Below, one piece after another: positions 2,863 through 37,020 of a stretch of 64,000 nt of DNA (the stretch's first letter is position 1; every line of letters starts with the position of its first letter). The position numbers and the translations under genes were made by a program. Origin of the DNA: a virus (taxonomy: Duplodnaviria; Caudoviricetes); the IMG/VR virus record IMGVR_UViG_3300011448_000001, positions 23,099 through 87,098 of that record; one strand, given 5' to 3'. The notes under the pieces were generated by a model that searched no databases, was not told where the DNA came from, and saw nothing but the letters and a program-made list of their open reading frames with translations.

Positions 2863-3003
2863 ATTTAATTAAGTTTAATTTACACTTATATAGTGTCGGA
2901 AACTCAACGTTACAAAGTTAGAAAGATTTTTAACGAGGTTTCGGATAAATCTATTTTTGTGTAAATGTTGTTAGATTCAATAAGTTTTGAAAATAACAAT
3001 ATA

Positions 3004-3474
3004 TTATGTAAAATGTTCCCAGTCTATTTCAACTTTTTTACCAACTATATCAGAAACCCATCTACGAAACACCATACCTTCATATCCATCAGGATCATTT
3101 ATTATTTTATATGCAGCTAATATACACTACATTTCATTAGATAAAGGATCTGGATATAAATCAGCATAATACATATTAGCAAGATATGTAGCATCTCCTA
3201 TAAATGAATCTGGAACGTTAAAACCGTATTGTATTAATTCTGTTTTTATTTGATTCGGTTCCCAACAATGAGTTACTCCATTTGCATTAATCATCATCTT
3301 ACTAGCATGTGTAGCAAGTTCGTTTGTAAAATGATGACCATGTTTTTTAAGATATTCTTTATATCCTTTTATACATTCCATTGTTTTTTGTATATACTCA
3401 TACGCATCTTTTATAGGAACTTGTTTTTTGTCAACATTATTTGTGTTTTTTCTTACTATAATATATTCTTTCAT
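3004..3474 (-). CDS. Hypothetical protein (HGxHF-motif family), TAG=Gln
   Basis: Track ORF 3127-3474 ends at TAG and continues CILAAYKIINDPDGYEGMVFRRW... to TAA at 3004. Confidence 0.75.
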
Positions 3475-3974
3475 GCTATACGTGTATCTATTTTATTAAT
3501 AAATTTTTCCATCATGGCTTGCTGCTATTTCATTAACATAGAAATATCATCTATAGATTTTTCTATTTTTCCAAATCTTTGTTCATTTTCTTGTTTCTCT
3601 TTGAACACAGGATTTAATTCAGAAAGTAATGATGGTGCTTTATCTATAATTTTATGTGCTTTTTCTGCAGAAGAAAGTATTTGTTCAGCATTTGCTTTTT
3701 GTACTTCTACTTCGTTTACAAGACCAGACTTTTCTGTAGAAAGAACTAAATTCCCAGCATATGTGACAGAAAGACCTTCTGGAATGGTATATATAGCTGT
3801 TTTACCAAAAGCATCTATCGTAACATCAACAACCATTTCTGTTTTACCTGTTTTCTGATTTATATCTAGTCTAGGAAATGATACCTAAGTAACCTTACCT
3901 TGTGTAAGTTCAAGTTCTTGTGTATCTAAAATATATACCGGATAATTTTGTTTTATTTCTTTAAATAGTAACAT
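3471..3974 (-). CDS. Hypothetical protein, TAG=Gln
   Basis: ATG at 3974 (MLLFKEIKQNYPVY); in-frame TAGs; ends at TGA 3471 overlapping the next ATG (ATGA). Confidence 0.75.
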
Positions 3975-4011
3975 ATCTTTTGTTTTTTAAGTTAATGATA
4001 TAGTATTAAAT

Positions 4012-4043
4012 AGAGGTGCAGAGTATTTTTACTCCACACCTTT
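4012..4043 (-). terminator. Possible intrinsic terminator hairpin
   Basis: Intergenic AGGTG..GAGTA-TTTT-TACTC..CACCT inverted repeat. Confidence 0.4.
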
Positions 4044-4050
4044 ATTTATT

Positions 4051-4464
4051 TTAAGCAGCCTAAGCTGGGATTGAAACTGTTAAAGAACTATTAATAGCGT
4101 AACAATTGGATTTACCGCAAATAATTTTAATAAGACCCTGTGTAGATCCTACCTGATTGATTGTTACAGAAGCAGGCAAAGTTGTTCTACCCTAAAAAGC
4201 AATCATAAATCTTTCTGTGATTACTTGAGTAGTAGCTTTACAACCATAACCAGGAGTTACGATAGTAATAGTAGCCACAACAGGAACAAATACTGTAGTA
4301 CCATTAAGTACCGGTGTTTCATTTCTATATGTTACTGTTGCTGATGGCTGATTAGAAGAAGTAGCACAAATTGTGCGACATAACTTCTCCTTAAAAGTAG
4401 CTAATACAGAAACCTGATTAGCTACTGGAGCGGCGGCTAAGCCTACCGGTGATAAAATAACCAT
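4051..4464 (-). CDS. Hypothetical protein, TAG=Gln
   Basis: Track ORF 4192-4464 reads through TAG (MIAF-Q-GRTTLP) to TAA at 4051. Confidence 0.75.
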
Positions 4465-4492
4465 AATTAAACAATTTAATTAATTAATATGA

Positions 4493-5371
4493 TCAAAGTC
4501 CACAACCGCAGTTGTTGTTACATCCGCAGCAGTTATTACAACCACCAAGACGATTCAGTAACAGATTGTTTTGACGCTCCTGAGAAAGCTCAAACTTCAA
4601 ATCCTGAATCTTACGCTGATTCTCATCATTCCAGTGATTATTCAAAGTATCAATTACACGCTGAGTATTAGCGTTACCAGCATTTATGATATCACAAGTC
4701 TGACGCTATGTCTCATAAGAAGAAGTAGCAAATCCTTGAGTAATTGCCTGACCAAGATCACGCTGACCATTACGGAGTTCTCCAGTCTACTGGCACATCT
4801 GCAGAGCCATAGCACTACGGAAGTCACATATGTTCTGACGTATGTTGCAGCAGCATTCCTGTAATTTAGAAATAATATTGCAATCACCGAGATTAGCAGC
4901 ATTAATTACACGCTCTGCTGAGAAACCTACCTGTCCAGCAACCTGCTGAATAGCAGCCTGAACATCACAGCAACACTTCTGGAGAGTATTGAAATCTACG
5001 TTAAGATTCTGTGCCAACTGACTAATAGCAAACGCATTACCCTGTACAGCCTGCTTAATACAATCAGCATTCTGATTATCCTGTAACTATGTACGGATAG
5101 CATTTAACTGAGCCTGAGTTTCGATACCCTGAGTAGCTACACCGGCACCCATGCCGTTACCACCTCCCCAACCGAAACCACCATTGCGGAACAGAGCCAT
5201 AAACATCATATAAGCAAACGGATTATTCATCCAGTTGTTCATACCACCATTCATCATTGCAGCCATAGGTCCCCAACCATCATGATTGTTATTTGCCAAA
5301 ATTGCTGCTGTTAACGCAGTATCGTTATTGTTACGATCGCAACAATAAATTTTTTCAATTGTGTTGTCCAC
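4493..5371 (-). CDS. Gly/Asn/Gln- and Cys-rich (CCC motif) protein, 292 aa with TAG=Gln
   Basis: ORFs 5087-5371 and 4787-5017 are in frame. Readthrough gives AIRT-Q-LQDNQ, MCQ-Q-TGELR and YET-Q-RQTCDII, ending GGCNNCCGCNNNCGCGL-TGA. Confidence 0.85.
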
Positions 5372-12670: not shown

Positions 12671-12763
12671 CCTGTGTTATGTACAATTAATTTAATAAGA
12701 GTTTTTGATAAACAAAATCAAGTTATAATTTTTATGAGAAAAAAATAAATTTTTTAAAGGTCG

Positions 12764-12835
12764 TACCCCCAGTACGATTCGAACGCACACTAAAGGGGTT
12801 AGAGCCCTCTGTGCTAACCATTACACCATGGGGGA
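12764..12835 (-). tRNA. Amber suppressor tRNA (anticodon CUA), presumed Gln
   Basis: Full cloverleaf: acceptor CCCCCA/TGGGGG, D-arm GTGT/GCAC, anticodon arm GAGGG-CTCTAAC-CCCTT (CTA at 12800-12802), T-arm GTGCG-TTCGAAT-CGTAC. CCA is not encoded. Confidence 0.92.
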
Positions 12836-20973: not shown

Positions 20974-21008
20974 ATTATAAGGGGGAGCTTGGACTCTCCC
21001 CCTTAAAA

Positions 21009-21077
21009 ACTCAGCCAAGAAGAGTATAAAATAGTCACTGATGAGACTTGGACGAAACACAAATGTGTCTGACGTGA
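21009..21077 (+). ncRNA. Hammerhead-like ribozyme (type I variant)
   Basis: GTCA-CTGATGA-G..C-GAAA-CAC(AAAT)GTG-TC-TGAC: intact core, stems I and III, GUC cleavage triplet; stem II reduced to 1 bp. Confidence 0.6.
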
Positions 21078-21226: not shown

Positions 21227-21310
21227 GCCTTTATGGCGGAATTGGTAGACGCGAGGGACTTAAAATCCCTTGTCCAGTTGGACGTGCAGGTTCGACTCCT
21301 GTTAGAGGCA
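21227..21310 (+). tRNA. trnL: tRNA-Leu(TAA)
   Basis: GCCTTTA/TAGAGGC acceptor, GGCGGAATTGGTAGACGC D-arm, AGGGA-CTTAAAA-TCCCT, long variable arm, GCAGG-TTCGACT-CCTGT. Confidence 0.93.
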
Positions 21311-21644
21311 CAACTTGTTGAATTGTCGTAATTTTAAATTGTATTGACTGAAAAGTATACATACTTTCAGTAAACAGTGGCTTCGGATGAAAGACCGTGG
21401 CATTTTCTTTATGCATTTTTTGTGAAGGGGTTTTTCGGTTTTCTTTAATCTTAAAGAAAATGGAAATAACTCTGACTGATATTAAAAAACTCAATAACAT
21501 CCCAAGACGTTGAGGGCACCGGTTTCTTGTTTGTAGCACAGATTATCTACCTATATAGATTACATTAGATGTAAAAGCTATAATAAACAAGTTTTAGGTG
21601 TAAAACGCGAGTTAATTAACATTATAAACAAAAACATTATCAAA

Positions 21645-22713: not shown

Positions 22714-23099
22714 ATATCATAATTAGAAAAAGAGGCAAAACTCTAAATAAAACCGTAGTTCAAAGAGCTGTTGAAAAAACAGCATTACTATTCCAAATAC
22801 TAATATCTTTGGAATCAAAAAAGAACACTACTGTTTACACATATCAATCTTTTAACGAAGATTTACAAATGTGTTATGTTAGATATTCTACATTTTGCTC
22901 CAAGCATATAGAAAGAGAAAACAACAAATATGAAACAGTAGTTAATCTATTATTCCAATTGCTTGTTAAACAAAGTTTAAGGCCTCTTATAGTAGAAAAG
23001 ATAAATATCTCTCTTGAAGCATCAAAACTTATAAAAGAAATGAATCTTTCTAAAAGCTTAAAACCTGAAGTGATTTATAGAATAATTTATAATGTTTAA
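22710..23099 (+). CDS. Hypothetical protein
   Basis: ATGA-coupled 129-aa ORF. Confidence 0.6.
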   Translation: MNIIIRKRGKTLNKTVVQRAVEKTALLFQILISLESKKNTTVYTYQSFNEDLQMCYVRYSTFCSKHIERENNKYETVVNLLFQLLVKQSLRPLIVEKINISLEASKLIKEMNLSKSLKPEVIYRIIYNV

Positions 23100-24937: not shown

Positions 24938-25429
24938 GATTTTCGTCAGTACATCATGTACAAAATCAGAAGGGAGAATCCTAGATAAGAACCTTTGAGT
25001 CAATGTCTAAAATGTACGAGGGAAGGGAATATGTGCATACATAGCTGATGCATAGTTGAGAAATTGAACTACATTTTCTATGAATTAACATAGAGTTATA
25101 CGAGCCACCGAGCCATTATAACGGACACCTCCATACCGAAAACACGGTATAGAAAAATATGTATTCGGGTCAACCTATGGTAAATCGAGTCATTGAACCT
25201 TATTATATCTCTAAAAGAGCTCTATAATTATTTACTAATATCAAGAATACTAATAATGCCGACAAGAGCCTTTGAGTCACGTCACTAGCATTTGTACAAA
25301 TTTACGTTCTAAGCACTTTTTATTATGCAGCAGTATAAACTGTAAACATGTATAGTAAAAGTGTCTTAGAACGCTTATAAAGTACTTTATATCGAATGTT
25401 TACATTTGACCCTGTAAGCATTCACAAAA

Positions 25430-25730
25430 AAAGGATCGCTTGAGTGTGATGTAAATATGCAAGACGAGGGTTCGACTCCCTCTAGCTCCACAAAACCAAT
25501 CAAAAAGGCAAGAATCAAAACTCTAAAAATAGGCACCTACTAGGAGACAGCCCACTTGGTGTAGAGAAGCACATTTTGATTGGTTCTATATAAGGGGCTA
25601 TATGGCATTTGATTGCATAGGAGATAAACACGAGATCAACATAAAAACAAACGACAATAGTAATATTGTTGACTATACTTGCGTAGCGTAAGTAAATGTC
25701 TGAGGTAGCTGTACCAATAACCGAAAACAG
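25430..25730 (+). ncRNA. ssrA: Circularly permuted (two-piece) tmRNA; outer boundaries approximate
   Basis: The 3' module TATGCAA-GAC-GAGGG-TTCGACT-CCCTC-TAGCTCC-A (25456-90) precedes the 5' module GGGGCTA-TATGGCATTTGA-TTGCATA (25594-619). G3-U70 pair. Tag ORF 25647-25691. Confidence 0.85.
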
Positions 25731-25733
25731 CAA

Positions 25734-25787
25734 GGAGAGATTGGATAAGGTAACACTTAAAGAGTTCGAATCTCTTTCTCTCCTCCG
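25734..25787 (+). ncRNA. Anticodon-less mini-tRNA-like element C
   Basis: GGAGAGA/TCTCTCC 7-bp acceptor-like stem, 19-nt linker, AAGAG-TTCGAAT-CTCTT T-arm, 3' TCCG. Confidence 0.65.
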
Positions 25788-27017: not shown

Positions 27018-27575
27018 ATGGAAAATCGAAAAAATATAACGCAAGAAGAGATTGACCTTATCAAAAGAGCACAAAGCGGAAGCATTTCTGCATTTAACCA
27101 GATATTTTATAAATACAAATATTTTGTAGAATCTATTCTCTTATCATATATAAAAGATAAAGATGAAGCGCGAGATATCACAAATATTGTATTTTGTAAA
27201 ATATACGATAAACTACCAAAATTCAAAGAATACAACTCGTTTGGTGGTTGGTTAAGAATCTTAACAAAAAATACTGCTATAGATTATCTACGTACAGTAA
27301 AAGTAAATTTCACAAGTATAGATGACGAAGAGTCTGATATTCAATTAGAAACAGGTGAATCTGAAGAAGATTTGGCCAATCTTCTAACGTTTGATTACGT
27401 AAGAGACATTATATCTAAAATGGATTCAACAAAACGTCAAATCTTTACAATGTATTATGTAGATCATCACACAATTAGTAGTATATCTAAGCGTTTATTG
27501 GTACCTGAAGGAACTATTAAGTCTCTTCTATATAGGTTCCGTAAACAAGTTTTTAAACATTTAAAGTTAAACTGA
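27018..27575 (+). CDS. ECF-type RNA polymerase sigma-70 family factor
   Basis: Region 2 (AFNQIF...DEARDITNIVF...FGGWLRILTKNTAIDYLR) and region 4 HTH (TISSISKRLLVPEGTIKSLLYR). Confidence 0.92.
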   Translation: MENRKNITQEEIDLIKRAQSGSISAFNQIFYKYKYFVESILLSYIKDKDEARDITNIVFCKIYDKLPKFKEYNSFGGWLRILTKNTAIDYLRTVKVNFTSIDDEESDIQLETGESEEDLANLLTFDYVRDIISKMDSTKRQIFTMYYVDHHTISSISKRLLVPEGTIKSLLYRFRKQVFKHLKLN

Positions 27576-29688: not shown

Positions 29689-30078
29689 ATGAAAACACTA
29701 AAAACAATAATGTGTGCTGCGTTATTAACATTCGGATGGATTGTTGGTACACATGACGACACATCATTAAAAGCAGAAGATCCACCAGACTTTAATTTTA
29801 CGATACCTGTAGATTTTCAGGCATCGTTTCTGAAAAAGACTGTGGAAAGTCTTACTAAAGAACTTGAAAGTAATGCACGGGTCGATACCGTGATAGTAAA
29901 CAAAACAAAACACGTGAAGGTTAAGGTACCTTATCGTGTAGTAGAACGTGACACTTCGTATGTGCCCGTTGTACTCATTATAACACCTGGGAATCGTAAA
30001 GAGCATATCCCTGATAGCATACCAACGCTACCAAAACACGATAGTTGCTCTCATGACAGTATAGATACGTCTATATGA
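29689..30078 (+). CDS. Hypothetical secreted protein
   Basis: Signal-peptide-like N-terminus. Confidence 0.7.
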   Translation: MKTLKTIMCAALLTFGWIVGTHDDTSLKAEDPPDFNFTIPVDFQASFLKKTVESLTKELESNARVDTVIVNKTKHVKVKVPYRVVERDTSYVPVVLIITPGNRKEHIPDSIPTLPKHDSCSHDSIDTSI

Positions 30079-30079
30079 G

Positions 30080-32060
30080 GCTAAGGAGGTTAGGATGGAG
30101 ATGTATTTAAAAGCTTTGCGCTTTATACATTCTCCTGCCTAGCTGCCATGTCATTTGAGTGCGTTAAGAGAGTCTCATTAGCTCAGGCACGAAAAAATAT
30201 CAAAACTTGATCCAAGAATATGTTAGCTTACCATGTAAGTGAGATACACAAAAGGTAGGATGGAAGACATTGAAATGTGAAAAATTTTAATGTATTAGGG
30301 ATAGCGTTTGTATTTCAACCCTAACATTTAGTATATGAGAACCGTCTGGCGATATACTATCTAAGAAAAACGCGTAAGTCTTCAGAAGAAGCAAAATGAA
30401 ACCGTATCGGAAATCTATATAATGAGGTATAAGTATAGAAGAACGAAACACGAGTTGCAAATCATCATATTCCATACATGATGATATACCTTAAATCGCT
30501 TATGTAGTGTTCCACAGCTCCAAACTGTGTAAGAAGGCAGAAAATACCTAAAAGTAATAGATAAAGAACAGAGACTGTAAGAATCTACTTACAGCTATAT
30601 CGTAAATATAGTACTTAAACTTAATCCTTGCCGTTAGATTCGGCACAACTCAGTTGAATGGGTGGCAGTGATCAGGTATAGTGTATGTTGAAAATGTTGC
30701 TCACTATTATGAAATAAGTGACCGCCAGCCCTTGGTCGTTCATGCGGGATATAAAAGTAGAATGACAAGATCGAGAAGGTACTCGATGTAGGACGAACCC
30801 TACAGTTTCAAAGAGTGTACTAAAACACTGATTGGAAGATAAGTAAGAGAAGATTAGCGAATCTCAAACTTTGAATTAAGAAATGGTGACTCCATGACAG
30901 TCAAAAATAAAAATATAACTAATGCATTCGAGGTATATCATTCCAGATATTACGGACCTGCTTAGTTCTCTATTATGTTGCAACTTATATGAAATACGCC
31001 TCCGAATTAGAAAGGTTGTAGTGAAATACACGATTCGTGAACTATTCGATGCCACGATGGTCGTCCTGCTATTAGAGATATAAGTATGAATATAATGACA
31101 TCATAGGAGATGGTTTTAGTAATTTTCCATTCAAAAAAATCTTAGGAGTAGTAAGCCTAAAAACCAAGTTATTAACAAAATTATATATTCGGTTCGATTT
31201 CTGTATATTCTAACGCATATTGTAGATGTGAAATATATGGTAAACCAAAAGGATATATGAGTGCCAACCGTTATGAGCAAAAGGTTGTATCAAGTAAACT
31301 AAATGACAGCAAATCTTTAGGTAAATTGAACAATGCAGCTATACTATTACACATACTCGTCCATACTGTCTCTATGGAGGAGGGTGCGGAATCTCAGTGT
31401 AAAAGCGTATGAGTAAAGCTATGTGATGTACTCGGTTAGAATCCGACTTATTCGTGCACTATAAACAAAAAAAGACCTCGAAAAGGCTACAATGGGTGTC
31501 TTGAAAAATTAGACAATTGTAAAAACTCAGTAAAGAGTAAATCCGACAAATCAATGAAACCTCTGAAGTGGAGATATTGTCGTTAATTAACGTACTCCTC
31601 ACGTTTGTACAAAAAGTAGGAAAAGTAGTTTTGATTGATTGTTCTTTTACTACAAAAATACCTTACGTCGAAATAATAAGAACAGGGGTAGCTTTGCCTA
31701 ATTCGGTATCGCAAGACCGGATAACAAAAGCAACATACTATAATCTACTCAGCACTGGAACTCTCCGCGATGCTTGGACACATCAGAGCCTTTGACGGTA
31801 GATTAGGTATACAAAATTTACACAAAAATTTATAGTAAGCTAAAGTAGTTGGTCACTTGAATGTGAAATACACAGAAACACGTTTGTAATTTTTATACTC
31901 TGACGCGCAGCCATAAGTCGTGGACGACGAGTACAAAAAACGAGCTCTCATAAGCACGCTTGAACGTAATTGTATTAGATAACAACGAAAGAATAGCAAC
32001 GACAACAAACAAACCCAATATGGCGTCGGGGAACGGCCTTACTGTTCCCCGCATTTTAAT
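30080..32060 (+). ncRNA. Candidate large structured non-coding RNA region (about 2 kb)
   Basis: No credible gene; at least a dozen stem-loops; closed by a 10-bp GC-rich hairpin at 32027-32051. Confidence 0.45.
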
Positions 32061-32105
32061 AACTTTCGTGGTGAATCAATCGCGAAATCAAAAAGGAAAA
32101 TTATT

Positions 32106-32717
32106 ATGACAGAAGTAAATGTAAAAATCCAGGAAAAGAGCCGCAAAGTAATTGCAGCATACGGTCAGGTATTCGGCCATCAGTTATTCACTGTACGTCA
32201 GTGTAATGTAGATAACAAGTATTATGACAAGAAGAACAATGCTGCAGATACAGGTATGCTCGTTCCACATCGCCCGATTCGTCGATACAAAACTCAGCGA
32301 ATCGATGTAACATCTTTACGGCTTCGTAAGGATATTGATGGTACTCTTACCATTGTAATTAACGAGTCACTTAAAGACGATAATGGCAACAGCCTTGAGA
32401 TTATCCGTCCTATCGAGATGCCTAAGTTCAACGTAGAACCTACTACAGAGAACATTCAGAAGGCTATTGAGGCTAATACAAGCGGTTCTGGTGAGCCATT
32501 GTATTTCAGTGACATTAACAAGCTTACTGAAGCTGTTAACCGCGCAAACACAAACGAGATGTTACGGGCTAAGAATCTCCTGGAGGACATCGAAGGACAG
32601 ATTCGCTGCATAGAACAGACAATTGAGAAGGATACTCGATATGCTATTGAGTATCGTAAGGCTCTCGGCGAGACTGACGATGTTACAATTAACACAACCG
32701 TTAAAGTTGAGGTATAA
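32106..32717 (+). CDS. Hypothetical protein (203 aa)
   Basis: Intact ORF with a C-terminal coiled coil. Confidence 0.8.
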   Translation: MTEVNVKIQEKSRKVIAAYGQVFGHQLFTVRQCNVDNKYYDKKNNAADTGMLVPHRPIRRYKTQRIDVTSLRLRKDIDGTLTIVINESLKDDNGNSLEIIRPIEMPKFNVEPTTENIQKAIEANTSGSGEPLYFSDINKLTEAVNRANTNEMLRAKNLLEDIEGQIRCIEQTIEKDTRYAIEYRKALGETDDVTINTTVKVEV

Positions 32718-35118: not shown

Positions 35119-37020
35119 ATGAAACTCAAGAATAAAAATCTACATGTATATGATGTAGAAATTTTCCCAAATTGTTTTCACATAACTTCAAAAGATACAG
35201 AAAACAATAAAATATACAAATTTGAGGTATCTTGTAGAAAATTTGAATTAGACAAAATATGTGACTATTTTAAAAGTGACGCCATTTTTGTAGGATATAA
35301 TAATCATCATTATGATGATTTATTTATAAATTACATAATGGAATATCGAGATAGTATGATTCATCTAAGCTATTGGGATATTTGTAAGTCCTTATTTAAT
35401 ATGTCACAGCTCATTATTAAAGAAAACGATGAGCCAAGTTACCTATTAAAACACTTCAAATATGCTCATTATTTTAAATCTATTGATTTACTTTCAATGT
35501 TAGCAAGTAAGAAATTACGTGTAGGATTGAAAGAAATGCAGCTTACAATGCATTATCAGAATGTATACGAATATGAAGGAGACTTTACATCGTATATTAA
35601 TGAAAATGATATAGATACTATGATTGAGTATAACATAAACGATGTACTTTCAACAGAGGAACTCCTCAACCGCTGTAAAAAGGATTTGGAAGTACGCGAA
35701 TGGATAGAGGAAGAATATGGTATTAATGCCTATTCAATGGATGGTGTAAAAATTGGAGAAACATTACTTGAAACTTTCTACATAAAAGAAACAAAAATTC
35801 CTAAGAAAGTATTAGAGTCAATGCGTTCTCCAATGGATATGATTCCTTTAAAGGATGTAATATTACCATTCATAAAATTTGAGAACCCAAAACTCAAAGA
35901 AATTTTAGAAGATATGAAATCGCGTGTTGTATCTTCTAAAGAAAGAAAAAGCTATGAGAAGCAGTTTGTGCTCTCAAATGTGGAATATTCGGTAGGTATA
36001 GGTGGAATCCATAGTCTACACAAACCGGAGATTTTCAGACCTAAAAATGATGAAATAATTGGGCATGCAGACGTAACAAGTATGTATCCTAGTTTATTAA
36101 TAAAACATCATTTACAACCAAAACATTTAGGTGAAAAATTTCGCAAGATGTATGAAAATATATACAACCAACGTGTTGATGCGAAACATAACGGGCAGAA
36201 GTTTAAAAATGAAACGTTAAAACTGACATTAAACTCTGTAACAGGTAAAATGCAACAAGAAGTAAGCTGGATGTACGACCCATTCAATGTCTTTCGTATT
36301 CGTATTAACGGTCAATTGATATTGTTGATGTTAGTTGAACGCCTATTAAATATTGACTGTAAGATAGTACAAGTCAATACTGATGGTGTAATGTACATTT
36401 GTAAAAAGTCAAATCAGAATGCAGTCCAAGATGCTATTCATGATGTCGAAAACATCACACAGCTTAATTTTGAAGTAGGATGTTATGAAGCGTTTTTTCA
36501 GTACGCAGGAAACGATTATTTTGGGATACTCGAAGGTTATGGACTATCACATGACCCAAAACTGATAGAAAAGAAAGGAATGTTTATAGATGAAACTAAA
36601 TTAGGTAAAGGGTTAGCTCCGACTATTATACCTAAAGCAGTAATGAATTATTTCATTAACAACATTCCTGTAGAACAGACAATAACTACTTGCACTGATA
36701 TACGTGAATTCTTTATAGGACAACGTGTATCAAAGGATTTTAAAGTTGAATACAAAGACAAACGTATACAACGAATAAATAGATTCTATGCAAGTACTAA
36801 TGGAGCATATCTATATAAATATAAAGAAAACAATGACGGTACAAGACAGTATTTTAATATGCTGACTAAATCTGGTGTAACAATTATGAATAAGTTAGAT
36901 AACTTAGACATAAAAAATAAAAATATAAATTACCGGTATTATATATCGGAGGCAAATAAAATTATAACAGAATTACGTACCGTTCAACTTGATCTATTTA
37001 ATCAATTCGGTAACCTTTGA
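35119..37020 (+). CDS. polB: Family B DNA polymerase with 3'-5' exonuclease
   Basis: Exo YDVEIF, GYNNHHYD, YNINDV; pol ADVTSMYPS, KLTLNSVTGK, VNTDG. Confidence 0.93.
   Translation: MKLKNKNLHVYDVEIFPNCFHITSKDTENNKIYKFEVSCRKFELDKICDYFKSDAIFVGYNNHHYDDLFINYIMEYRDSMIHLSYWDICKSLFNMSQLIIKENDEPSYLLKHFKYAHYFKSIDLLSMLASKKLRVGLKEMQLTMHYQNVYEYEGDFTSYINENDIDTMIEYNINDVLSTEELLNRCKKDLEVREWIEEEYGINAYSMDGVKIGETLLETFYIKETKIPKKVLESMRSPMDMIPLKDVILPFIKFENPKLKEILEDMKSRVVSSKERKSYEKQFVLSNVEYSVGIGGIHSLHKPEIFRPKNDEIIGHADVTSMYPSLLIKHHLQPKHLGEKFRKMYENIYNQRVDAKHNGQKFKNETLKLTLNSVTGKMQQEVSWMYDPFNVFRIRINGQLILLMLVERLLNIDCKIVQVNTDGVMYICKKSNQNAVQDAIHDVENITQLNFEVGCYEAFFQYAGNDYFGILEGYGLSHDPKLIEKKGMFIDETKLGKGLAPTIIPKAVMNYFINNIPVEQTITTCTDIREFFIGQRVSKDFKVEYKDKRIQRINRFYASTNGAYLYKYKENNDGTRQYFNMLTKSGVTIMNKLDNLDIKNKNINYRYYISEANKIITELRTVQLDLFNQFGNL

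Follow-up and report, generated by a model that had tools for sequence, protein, structure and literature searches.

The subject of this study is a tract of 2,027 nucleotides (nt) that is free of open reading frames (ORFs), located at positions 30079-32105 of a 64,000-nt stretch of viral DNA (Duplodnaviria; Caudoviricetes; IMG/VR record IMGVR_UViG_3300011448_000001, 87,098 bp, positions 23,099 to 87,098), hereafter the window. Its limits are the stop codon of a 129-amino acid (aa) ORF (29689-30078) and, at 32106, the ATG that starts a 203-aa ORF; BLAST assigned it to crAss-like phages (Crassvirales, Suoliviridae). It lies in a module of early or replication genes, with the gene of a DNA polymerase at 35119-37020 and that of an ECF-type sigma factor at 27018-27575. 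We suggest that the tract is very probably the gene of a large, multi-domain and highly structured non-coding RNA (ncRNA) on the + strand, the same strand as that module. The other neighbouring proteins were assigned to no family with Pfam, PHROGs or the ESM Atlas; an RNase-H-like transposase domain was considered for the 203-aa protein and discarded as too weak (Atlas TM 0.3-0.4, model pLDDT 0.43).

At the coding level, the longest standard-code frames inside the tract are 62 aa (- strand) and 75 aa (+ strand), the same values that an earlier note on this DNA had read from its list of ORFs. That note had also argued that recoding does not explain the gap. The window carries a suppressor tRNA with anticodon CTA, which reads TAG (12763-12835, - strand; labelled 'Pyl' by ARAGORN), so a recoding test of the tract was needed, and the argument was borne out. 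With code 11 and single stop reassignments, the + strand held no ORF of at least 60 aa except the 75-aa GTG frame, and reading TAG as Q, TGA as W or TAA as Q opened none of its frames. Stop reassignment produced only sporadic minus-strand frames (up to 176 aa, with 4 read-through codons). Moreover, no ORF recurred by place and strand in 23 full-length related loci under the standard, TAG-reassigned or TGA-reassigned codes. The suppressor tRNA implies TAG read-through in part of the phage, and such read-through leaves the 2-kb tract unexplained.

The idea that unusual decoding (by multiple stop reassignments, frameshifts or introns) conceals a coding region could still point to that tRNA, to the group I introns found elsewhere in relatives and to the 125-168-aa minus-strand ORFs that some annotations put on the tract. 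We find it hardly credible: no single reassignment opens a + strand frame, the annotated ORFs vary in place, strand and presence between genomes, intron models match nothing in the gap, and the substitutions described below preserve base pairs. The same holds for a decayed pseudogene, which would not keep the conservation of the tract, as follows.

We examined 12 GenBank phages from four Suoliviridae subfamilies and about 95 IMG/VR contigs, and every relative checked had an ORF-free gap of 2.0-2.5 kb in the same syntenic place. The gap was found in the Oafivirinae (cr130_1, a Bohxovirus, cr272_1, cr7_1 and cr124_1), the Loutivirinae (cr4_1, cr53_1 and cr56_1), the Boorivirinae (cr10_1, 2,456 nt) and the Uncouvirinae (cr114_1, 2,053 nt); in all of these phages it follows the sigma factor and products of ~120 aa, ~490 aa and ~130 aa, and precedes products of ~200 aa and ~190 aa. 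It measured 1,974-2,278 nt in 25 loci of Oafivirinae and Loutivirinae types. Its DNA is collinear over the full length, in blocks of 70-90% identity that are strongest in the first 700 nt. The flanking proteins are less well conserved, the downstream one being 22-26% identical across four genera. A decayed pseudogene was rejected on this ground, since it would not hold 70-90% identity beside proteins at 22-26%.

Relatives were gathered by DNA pattern. A search of IMG/VR with the downstream protein, as a single sequence and as a 4-sequence profile, returned already known genomes only. A 17-mer from the best conserved block retrieved 79 IMG/VR stretches, 67 of them true relatives falling into two clusters; the rest were chance matches, rejected by covariance model R1 (see below). 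A variant 15-mer added 28 relatives, and most matches of this second scan were again due to chance and rejected by R1.

In deposited genomes, the gap is either left empty or given tiny or minus-strand ORFs, which are not the same from one genome to the next; a dozen ORFs of 30-100 aa occupy it in Dulem virus 42. Some of these small or minus-strand 'hypothetical protein' ORFs, unconserved between genomes, sit on the conserved RNA core: NC_055875.1 20963-21148 (gp22), NC_055897.1 14441-14602 (gp096), NC_055895.1 25398-25880 (gp52), PV686213.1 85176-85682 and PP511876.1 79346-81354. They are probably spurious, and the annotation of several phage genomes would have to be corrected at this locus.

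None of the 4,227 families of Rfam 15 –including GOLLD, ROOL, OLE, introns, riboswitches and RAGATH motifs– matched the gap, neither in the window (gathering threshold and E up to 10) nor in six relatives (gathering threshold) or four subfamily representatives (E up to 1). This Infernal search had been proposed in the earlier note, and its negative outcome is meaningful because the same scans detected other RNAs elsewhere in these phages: a RAGATH-1 hammerhead, tRNAs, RAGATH-9, RAGATH-20 and group I introns. Individual candidates were also set aside. A group I or II intron had no model match in the gap, and each flanking ORF is a complete gene that has a stop and a start codon of its own. Neither the GOLLD nor the ROOL covariance model matched the gap, and no tRNA array lies beside the tract: the window has its tRNAs at 12.8, 21.2 and 40.6 kb, all of them more than 8 kb away. 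A tRNA- or tmRNA-like (transfer-messenger RNA-like) gene was called in the gap by neither ARAGORN nor Rfam, and just two T-arm-like hairpins were seen (30629-45 and 31433-45).

Domain A is the conserved 5' core of the tract (30198-30398, model R1; + strand, as for all features of the tract below). Its helices were derived from the column statistics of 28 non-redundant sequences aligned with plain MAFFT (seed A4), and comprise H1b (30210-13/30258-61), H2 (30226-30/30236-40), H3 (30267-76/30284-93, with loop GUGAAAA), H4 (30296-300/30319-23) and H6 (30329-36/30352-59). In addition, the H4 loop GCGU (30304-07) forms a pseudoknot with ACGC (30370-73). In the seed, pairing reached 85.8% against 68.6% in shuffled alignments, with 149 double-change cells against 40.5 (0/500 shuffles as high), and controls with slid partners paired at no more than 54%. 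After realignment with R1, 48 distinct sequences gave 89.7% against 65.6%, 313 double-change cells against 97 (0/500), and slid controls at 31-50%. The pseudoknot was 99% paired, and one of its pairs occurred as CG in 17 sequences, GC in 5, UA in 5 and AU in 1.

Model R1 matched all true family members on the gene strand with 122-198 bits. Scores were 113-136 bits for cr7_1 and three Loutivirinae phages, 35 bits for the Boorivirinae and 31 bits for the Uncouvirinae, each at the 5' end of the syntenic gap; two Steigviridae genomes (phi14:2 and cr128_1) gave no R1 match. In the two distant subfamilies –Boorivirinae and Uncouvirinae– H1b, H4, the pseudoknot and H6 are kept through compensatory changes: H4 reads AUGGG/CCCAU and GUGGG/CCCAC, the pseudoknot GUGU/ACAC instead of GCGU/ACGC, and H6 AAUCU/AGAUU and AGGU/ACCU.

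H6 presents a loop of 15 nt, GAGAACCGUCUGGYG (30337-30351), which is invariant in 28/28 seed sequences and is the most conserved element of the family. It changes slightly in the Loutivirinae (GAGAACCGUAUUGG) and in the Uncouvirinae and Boorivirinae (GAGAACCGGUUGG), and in these three subfamilies the stem around it shows compensatory changes. The loop is a candidate site for contact with a partner or for a tertiary interaction.

Domain B2 (30566-30772, model R2) has four hairpins and an H-type pseudoknot. The hairpins are P-a (30575-81/30588-94), P-b (30594-600/30606-12, loop CGUAA), the T-loop-like P-c (30629-33/30641-45, loop UUAGAUU here and UUCGAUU in most relatives) and P-d (30648-52/30659-63). 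The pseudoknot joins S1 (30722-25/30744-47; CCGC/GCGG, with variants CCGA/UCGG and CCGU/ACGG) and S2 (30735-41/30760-66; GUCGUUC/GAAUGAC). In a MAFFT alignment of 19 sequences (A6), pairing was 91.1% against 79.0% shuffled, with 96 double-change cells against 31 (0/500); with R2 and 42 distinct sequences it was 92.4% against 76.3%, with 242 against 76 (0/500). P-c was 100% paired, with covariation in 4/5 pairs. P-a corresponds to the stem CTGTAAG/CTTACAG (30575-94) picked out in the earlier note, and covariation is present there. In this form, the domain was found in the Oafivirinae-type cluster only (46 loci).

Three short hairpins follow the B2 pseudoknot on its 3' side (30770-75/30782-87, 30787-92/30799-804 and 30812-15/30826-29). 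The first two had been proposed before as ATCGAG/CTCGAT and TGTAGG/CCTACA, and the alignment and the first, loose scan show counterpart hairpins at the same position in relatives. The third has 4 bp, 3 of them with double changes, and was accepted by the stringent scan for helices.

In the 3' half, hairpin C1a (31214-31230) has a conserved loop (A/G)UUGUA(A/G), here GUUGUAA, and compensatory changes in 4/5 pairs (19 sequences from both clusters); it was also recovered in the unbiased scan. Downstream lies a single-stranded block conserved in both clusters, GAGUGCCAACCG (31259-31270). Domain C2 (31354-31469, model R3) includes hairpin Ca (31360-65/31373-78, conserved loop CUGUCUC), a second T-loop-like hairpin (31433-35/31443-45, loop UUAGAAU) and the conserved block UUCGUGCACUAUAAAC. 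Hairpin Ca was 92.7% paired against 58.2% shuffled in alignment A8 (0/500). For the whole domain, 46 distinct sequences gave 91.4% against 66.8%, with 101 double-change cells against 34.5 (0/500), and R3 matched 69 loci of Oafivirinae and Loutivirinae types. AGUGC (31260-64) might pair with GCACU (31456-60) and close a domain of about 200 nt (5 bp, 3 double-change pairs). We keep this pairing as tentative because long-range helices as a class did no better than shuffles (4 against 1.5).

Further downstream, the stringent scan identified a 4-bp helix at 31549-52/31575-78 with 4/4 pairs changed on both sides. A last element (31741-31806) consists of a helix (31741-48/31798-805) around the conserved UCAGCACUGGAACUCUC...CAGAGCCUUUGACGG. 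It is shared with Bohxovirus-type loci (BLAST, 82% identity over 51 nt), and in these loci compensatory changes confirm the long-range pair TAATCTAC/GTAGATTA (31741/31798) of the earlier note, with variants AAUCUAC/GUAGAUU, CUGUAUC/GAUACAG and UAGUAUC/GAUAUUA. For the GCAA tetraloop hairpin that the same note had listed at 31703-20, conservation was not shown.

Taken as a whole, a scan of the full-length MAFFT alignment, done with no structure prediction, retrieved 13 helices against 1.0 +/- 1.0 in column shuffles. It accepted local helices of at least 4 bp with at least 75% canonical pairs and at least 3 pairs changed on both sides, and four of the helices are in the 3' half (31214-30, 31360-78, 31405-55 and 31549-78). 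Across models R1, R2 and R3 (domains A, B2 and C2), canonical pairing was 90-92% against 66-76% shuffled, and double changes were in about 3-fold excess. None of 500 shuffles reached the observed paired fraction, number of double-change cells or covariation score, and slid-partner controls were 3- to 10-fold lower. RNAalifold on plain MAFFT alignments recovered few helices, so we defined the helices manually and from column scans before counting them. A first whole-matrix covariation scan was discarded, since its loose criteria made it too noisy. Covariation in aligned orthologous regions, the second check suggested in the earlier note, was run as shuffle-controlled counts and is strong in three domains and in further hairpins. 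These patterns indicate that selection maintains base pairing along the tract, in no fewer than three collinear domains and in hairpins up to 31806, with demonstrated structure spanning at least 30206-31806.

The modelled pairs contain 250 G·U against 56 A·C, and all R1, R2 and R3 matches are on the gene strand; therefore, the RNA should correspond to the + strand. The G·U excess also bears on a DNA-level element, such as a replication origin, a packaging site or hairpin promoters for a virion RNA polymerase. The position in a replication module near the DNA polymerase gene would suit such an element. N4-like phage virion RNA polymerases act on single-stranded or hairpin templates. Those of crAss-like phages are described as using single-stranded or hairpin templates as well (bioRxiv 10.1101/2020.03.07.982082). 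We judge a DNA element very improbable: G·U is 4.5 times as frequent as A·C in the helices, an asymmetry without meaning for duplex or cruciform DNA, and pseudoknots and dozens of distinct covarying helices are foreign to origins. Besides, the tract has no iterons, a search for tandem, direct and dispersed repeats found none, and the cumulative GC skew does not turn there. The G+C content (33-38%) and the GC skew are unremarkable. The bipartite motif GARYCW-NN-GARYCW was not found in the tract with up to 1 mismatch; elsewhere it has four exact copies within 300 nt at 24989-25279 (+ strand), the only exact ones in the 64-kb window.

At the 5' edge, a hairpin follows the upstream stop codon (30097-30135). 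The earlier note had drawn it as the stem GGAGATGTAT/ATACATTCTCC; its inner part AAGC/GCTT (30111-14/30120-23) recurs in relatives with varied pair types, as seen in the first scan with loose criteria, and the rest of the stem did not find support. This hairpin could mark where the upstream transcript ends, or be part of the RNA's own 5' leader or promoter region. Two motifs close by, AAGCTnTGCGCTTA and GGTCTCATTAGCC, are kept in relatives; they were considered as promoters and rejected, as neither repeats elsewhere in the window.

At the 3' edge, a terminator-like hairpin (32027-32051; 10 bp, 7 of them G-C) is followed by CAUUUUAAU and lies 54 nt 5' of the next ATG. It is the sole terminator-like site of the gap on the + strand and a candidate for the 3' end of the RNA. 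The pair CGGGGAACGG/CTGTTCCCCG, once taken for a long-range helix closing the region, is in fact this local hairpin before a T run. The motif UCAAAAAGGA (32096-32105 in the window, and equivalents elsewhere) stands 8-15 nt before the downstream ATG, is kept in most Oafivirinae-type loci and is probably the ribosome-binding region of the downstream gene.

These edges are relevant to a cis-acting role, in which the tract would be an untranslated region (UTR): a long structured 5' leader of the 203-aa operon or the 3' UTR of the upstream genes. The strand shared with both neighbours, a sole terminator-like hairpin just 5' of the next gene's ribosome-binding region and the fact that no promoter was identified would all be in line with it. 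We nevertheless regard a UTR as improbable. To our knowledge, no bacterial or phage leader is near 2 kb; riboswitch, T-box and leader families remained unmatched at E up to 1-10; the RNA sequence is far more conserved than the genes that it would regulate; and the downstream gene has its own conserved ribosome-binding-like motif, AAAAAGGA, past the hairpin.

Several observations weigh against a single large structured RNA, or at least temper its support. Folding energies of the window sequence alone were not significant: minimum free energy (MFE) z-scores for the two + strand halves were -1.23 and -0.19, and the value for the minus strand of the first half (-2.19) was counted as uninformative. 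For about half of the 2 kb the alignment is poor and no pairs were demonstrated (~30830-31200, 31470-31540, 31600-31740 and 31810-32020); such parts might be linkers, domains specific to a lineage, or units of their own. Taken as a class, long-range helices were not in excess over shuffles, and the 13-bp pairing of the window at 30481-96/30926-41 was matched in relatives no better than by chance. With R2 and R3, neither B2 nor C2 was detected in the Boorivirinae or Uncouvirinae. Alignments fitted to the covariance models lean towards the modelled structure, so that the MAFFT-only counts (A4, A6 and A8) are the unbiased ones. Finally, no promoter for the RNA was identified, and a canonical terminator at the equivalent 3' place was seen in few relatives only.

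As single-sequence MFE was no better than shuffles, the hairpin density has to rest on comparative data. The earlier note had called the region hairpin-dense on the basis of its stems; this argument from one sequence is insufficient by itself, and the description holds through covariation and not through folding energy. Its overall proposal of one very large or several tandem structured RNAs is supported by synteny, by covariation and by the lack of any Rfam match.

Whether these domains are one molecule is a separate matter. We lean slightly towards their being parts of one transcript of ~1.9 kb that would end at 32027-32051, the alternative being 2-4 adjacent RNAs. R1, R2 and R3 keep a fixed order, with the start of R3 1,156-1,434 nt past R1 in the roughly 30 loci whose sequence is long enough, and domain order and spacing are fixed in every locus. 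The gap keeps its length of ~2.0-2.5 kb despite sequence turnover, and no conserved internal terminator-like site was found in it. Fixed order and spacing, conserved total length and the lack of such a site favour one long RNA.

Several tandem structured RNAs, separately transcribed or processed from a precursor, are a serious alternative, since the domains are not tied together by any conserved helix and what lies between them aligns poorly; we hold it possible but doubtful. They could be, for instance, a ~600-nt 5' RNA (domains A and B), a ~250-nt RNA at ~31210-31470 and a small 3' element. Covariation was found for local and medium-range helices only, and conservation differs between parts: the core of A occurs throughout the family, B2 in the Oafivirinae type only, C2 in the Oafivirinae and Loutivirinae types, and the element at 31741-31806 just in a sub-clade. 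The crAss-like phage phi14:2 offers a precedent with two adjacent long ncRNAs. Uneven conservation is also compatible with one molecule, given that GOLLD joins a universally conserved part, a variable part and a disordered linker in one RNA (PMC12286853).

Regarding its role, the RNA has the hallmarks of a compact fold: two pseudoknots, two T-loop modules and the invariant 15-nt loop. Conserved hairpin loops are a recurrent feature too (GUGAAAA, CGUAA, GUUGUAA and CUGUCUC). Considering these hallmarks together with the precedents of ROOL, GOLLD and phi14:2, we propose a structural RNA that would act in trans, as an abundant, stable and compactly folded particle rather than an mRNA leader. It would be made together with the early or replication genes and, more speculatively, could serve as a scaffold or decoy, its invariant loop and T-loop modules holding some macromolecule of the host or the phage while infection proceeds. 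That partner might be a tRNA, a component of the ribosome or an enzyme acting on nucleic acids, and the RNA may self-assemble like ROOL and GOLLD, binding or enclosing a macromolecule. The strongest form of this idea is a single RNA of ~1.9-2.4 kb, as a compact fold or a homo-oligomeric particle, with its own activity in infection (ribozyme, tRNA- or ribosome-capturing scaffold, or anti-defence decoy). We offer it tentatively, as a possibility rather than an expectation. If true, this would be by far the largest structured bacterial or phage ncRNA besides rRNA, in a class unrelated to GOLLD, ROOL and OLE.

Among the viruses of the human and animal gut, crAss-like phages are the most abundant, and their biology has mostly been inferred from protein genes. 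The locus takes up about 2% of the genome. Its fixed site across the family and a conservation above that of neighbouring proteins suggest that the RNA probably performs an important step of infection. On a practical level, the three covariance models and the invariant 15-nt loop provide a specific marker for Suoliviridae in metagenomes.

Other RNAs were observed elsewhere in these phages. ARAGORN called a permuted tmRNA at 25401-25782 (+ strand, tag peptide DNSNIVDYTCVA) that Rfam did not report. A tmRNA also stands in the same syntenic place, upstream of the sigma-factor gene, in the GenBank annotation of cr7_1 and cr124_1; thus, a phage-encoded two-piece tmRNA seems to be real and family-wide. 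A RAGATH-1 hammerhead (21008-21074, + strand; 69 bits, gathering 56) lies ~150 nt upstream of a tRNA-Leu(UAA) (21227-21311, + strand). In relatives, RAGATH-20 and RAGATH-9 RNAs and group I introns occur a few kb upstream of the giant-RNA locus; the sites are 534-631 and 887-1142 in locus L015, 13704-13805 in L011, and 196-357 and 1671-1960 in L087, the group I introns being L015 887-1142 and L087 1671-1960. These phages are unusually rich in structured RNAs.

Within Crassvirales, the nearest case is phi14:2, where two lengthy stretches between genes (g004-g005 and g005-g006) exceed most genes in transcription as early as the first time point and persist, with unknown function (bioRxiv 10.1101/2020.03.07.982082). 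In its record (NC_021806.1, our L093), positions 2905-4601 form a 1.7-kb tract between g004 and g006 from which all small ORFs were removed in June 2020, and this tract corresponds to the highly transcribed long ncRNAs reported for that phage. Both loci are ORF-free tracts of similar kind (~1.7 kb in phi14:2) near early genes, and the RNAs of phi14:2 are transcribed in gene direction. However, phi14:2 belongs to the Steigviridae, R1 (which covers domain A only) finds no homologue in NC_021806, and no conserved structure has been reported for its ncRNAs; transcription was seen for phi14:2, whereas the Suoliviridae RNA is predicted from sequence. In the literature searched, including Yutin et al. 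2021 (PMC7886860) and a 2023 Crassvirales review (PMC10136315), we found no large structured RNA or conserved non-coding tract described for crAss-like phages.

We regard the RNA as a new family within a general kind already known, that of the large ornate phage ncRNAs. Few large 'ornate' RNAs exist, GOLLD, ROOL and OLE among them, and their functions are a long-standing open question. An unrelated class, 2-3 times larger if it is one RNA, would be a new test case for their function and a target for cryo-EM and chemical probing. OLE (~600 nt) and the raiA-motif (~200 nt) are similar in being large, defined by covariation and complex in fold, with conserved single-stranded blocks. They differ in being chromosomal RNAs of Bacillota and related bacteria with no Rfam match here, and OLE works in a membrane ribonucleoprotein complex.

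ROOL, about 580 nt in total, is likewise a gut or rumen phage or prophage RNA with multiple pseudoknots, no known protein partner and unknown function. It has a fraction of the length of this locus and a tRNA neighbourhood that is absent here, and its linker is at nucleotides 414-464 (PMC12286853). Both ROOL and GOLLD are pseudoknot-rich RNAs that form RNA-only cages (PMC12286853), seen by cryo-EM, whereas the Suoliviridae RNA has so far been described at the level of sequence. GOLLD differs from it in size (~800 nt against a locus of ~2,000 nt), in having no sequence or structure homology according to Rfam models, in usually lying beside tRNA islands (here the nearest tRNA genes are ~9 kb off on either side) and in carrying its conserved core at the 3' end instead of the 5' end. 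If the Suoliviridae RNA is one molecule, it would have about 2.5 times the size of GOLLD and may be the largest folded phage RNA yet seen. With GOLLD it shares a phage or prophage origin, a very large size, a wealth of helices and pseudoknots, unknown function, and an architecture of one universally conserved part, one less conserved part and a poorly ordered linker (PMC12286853).

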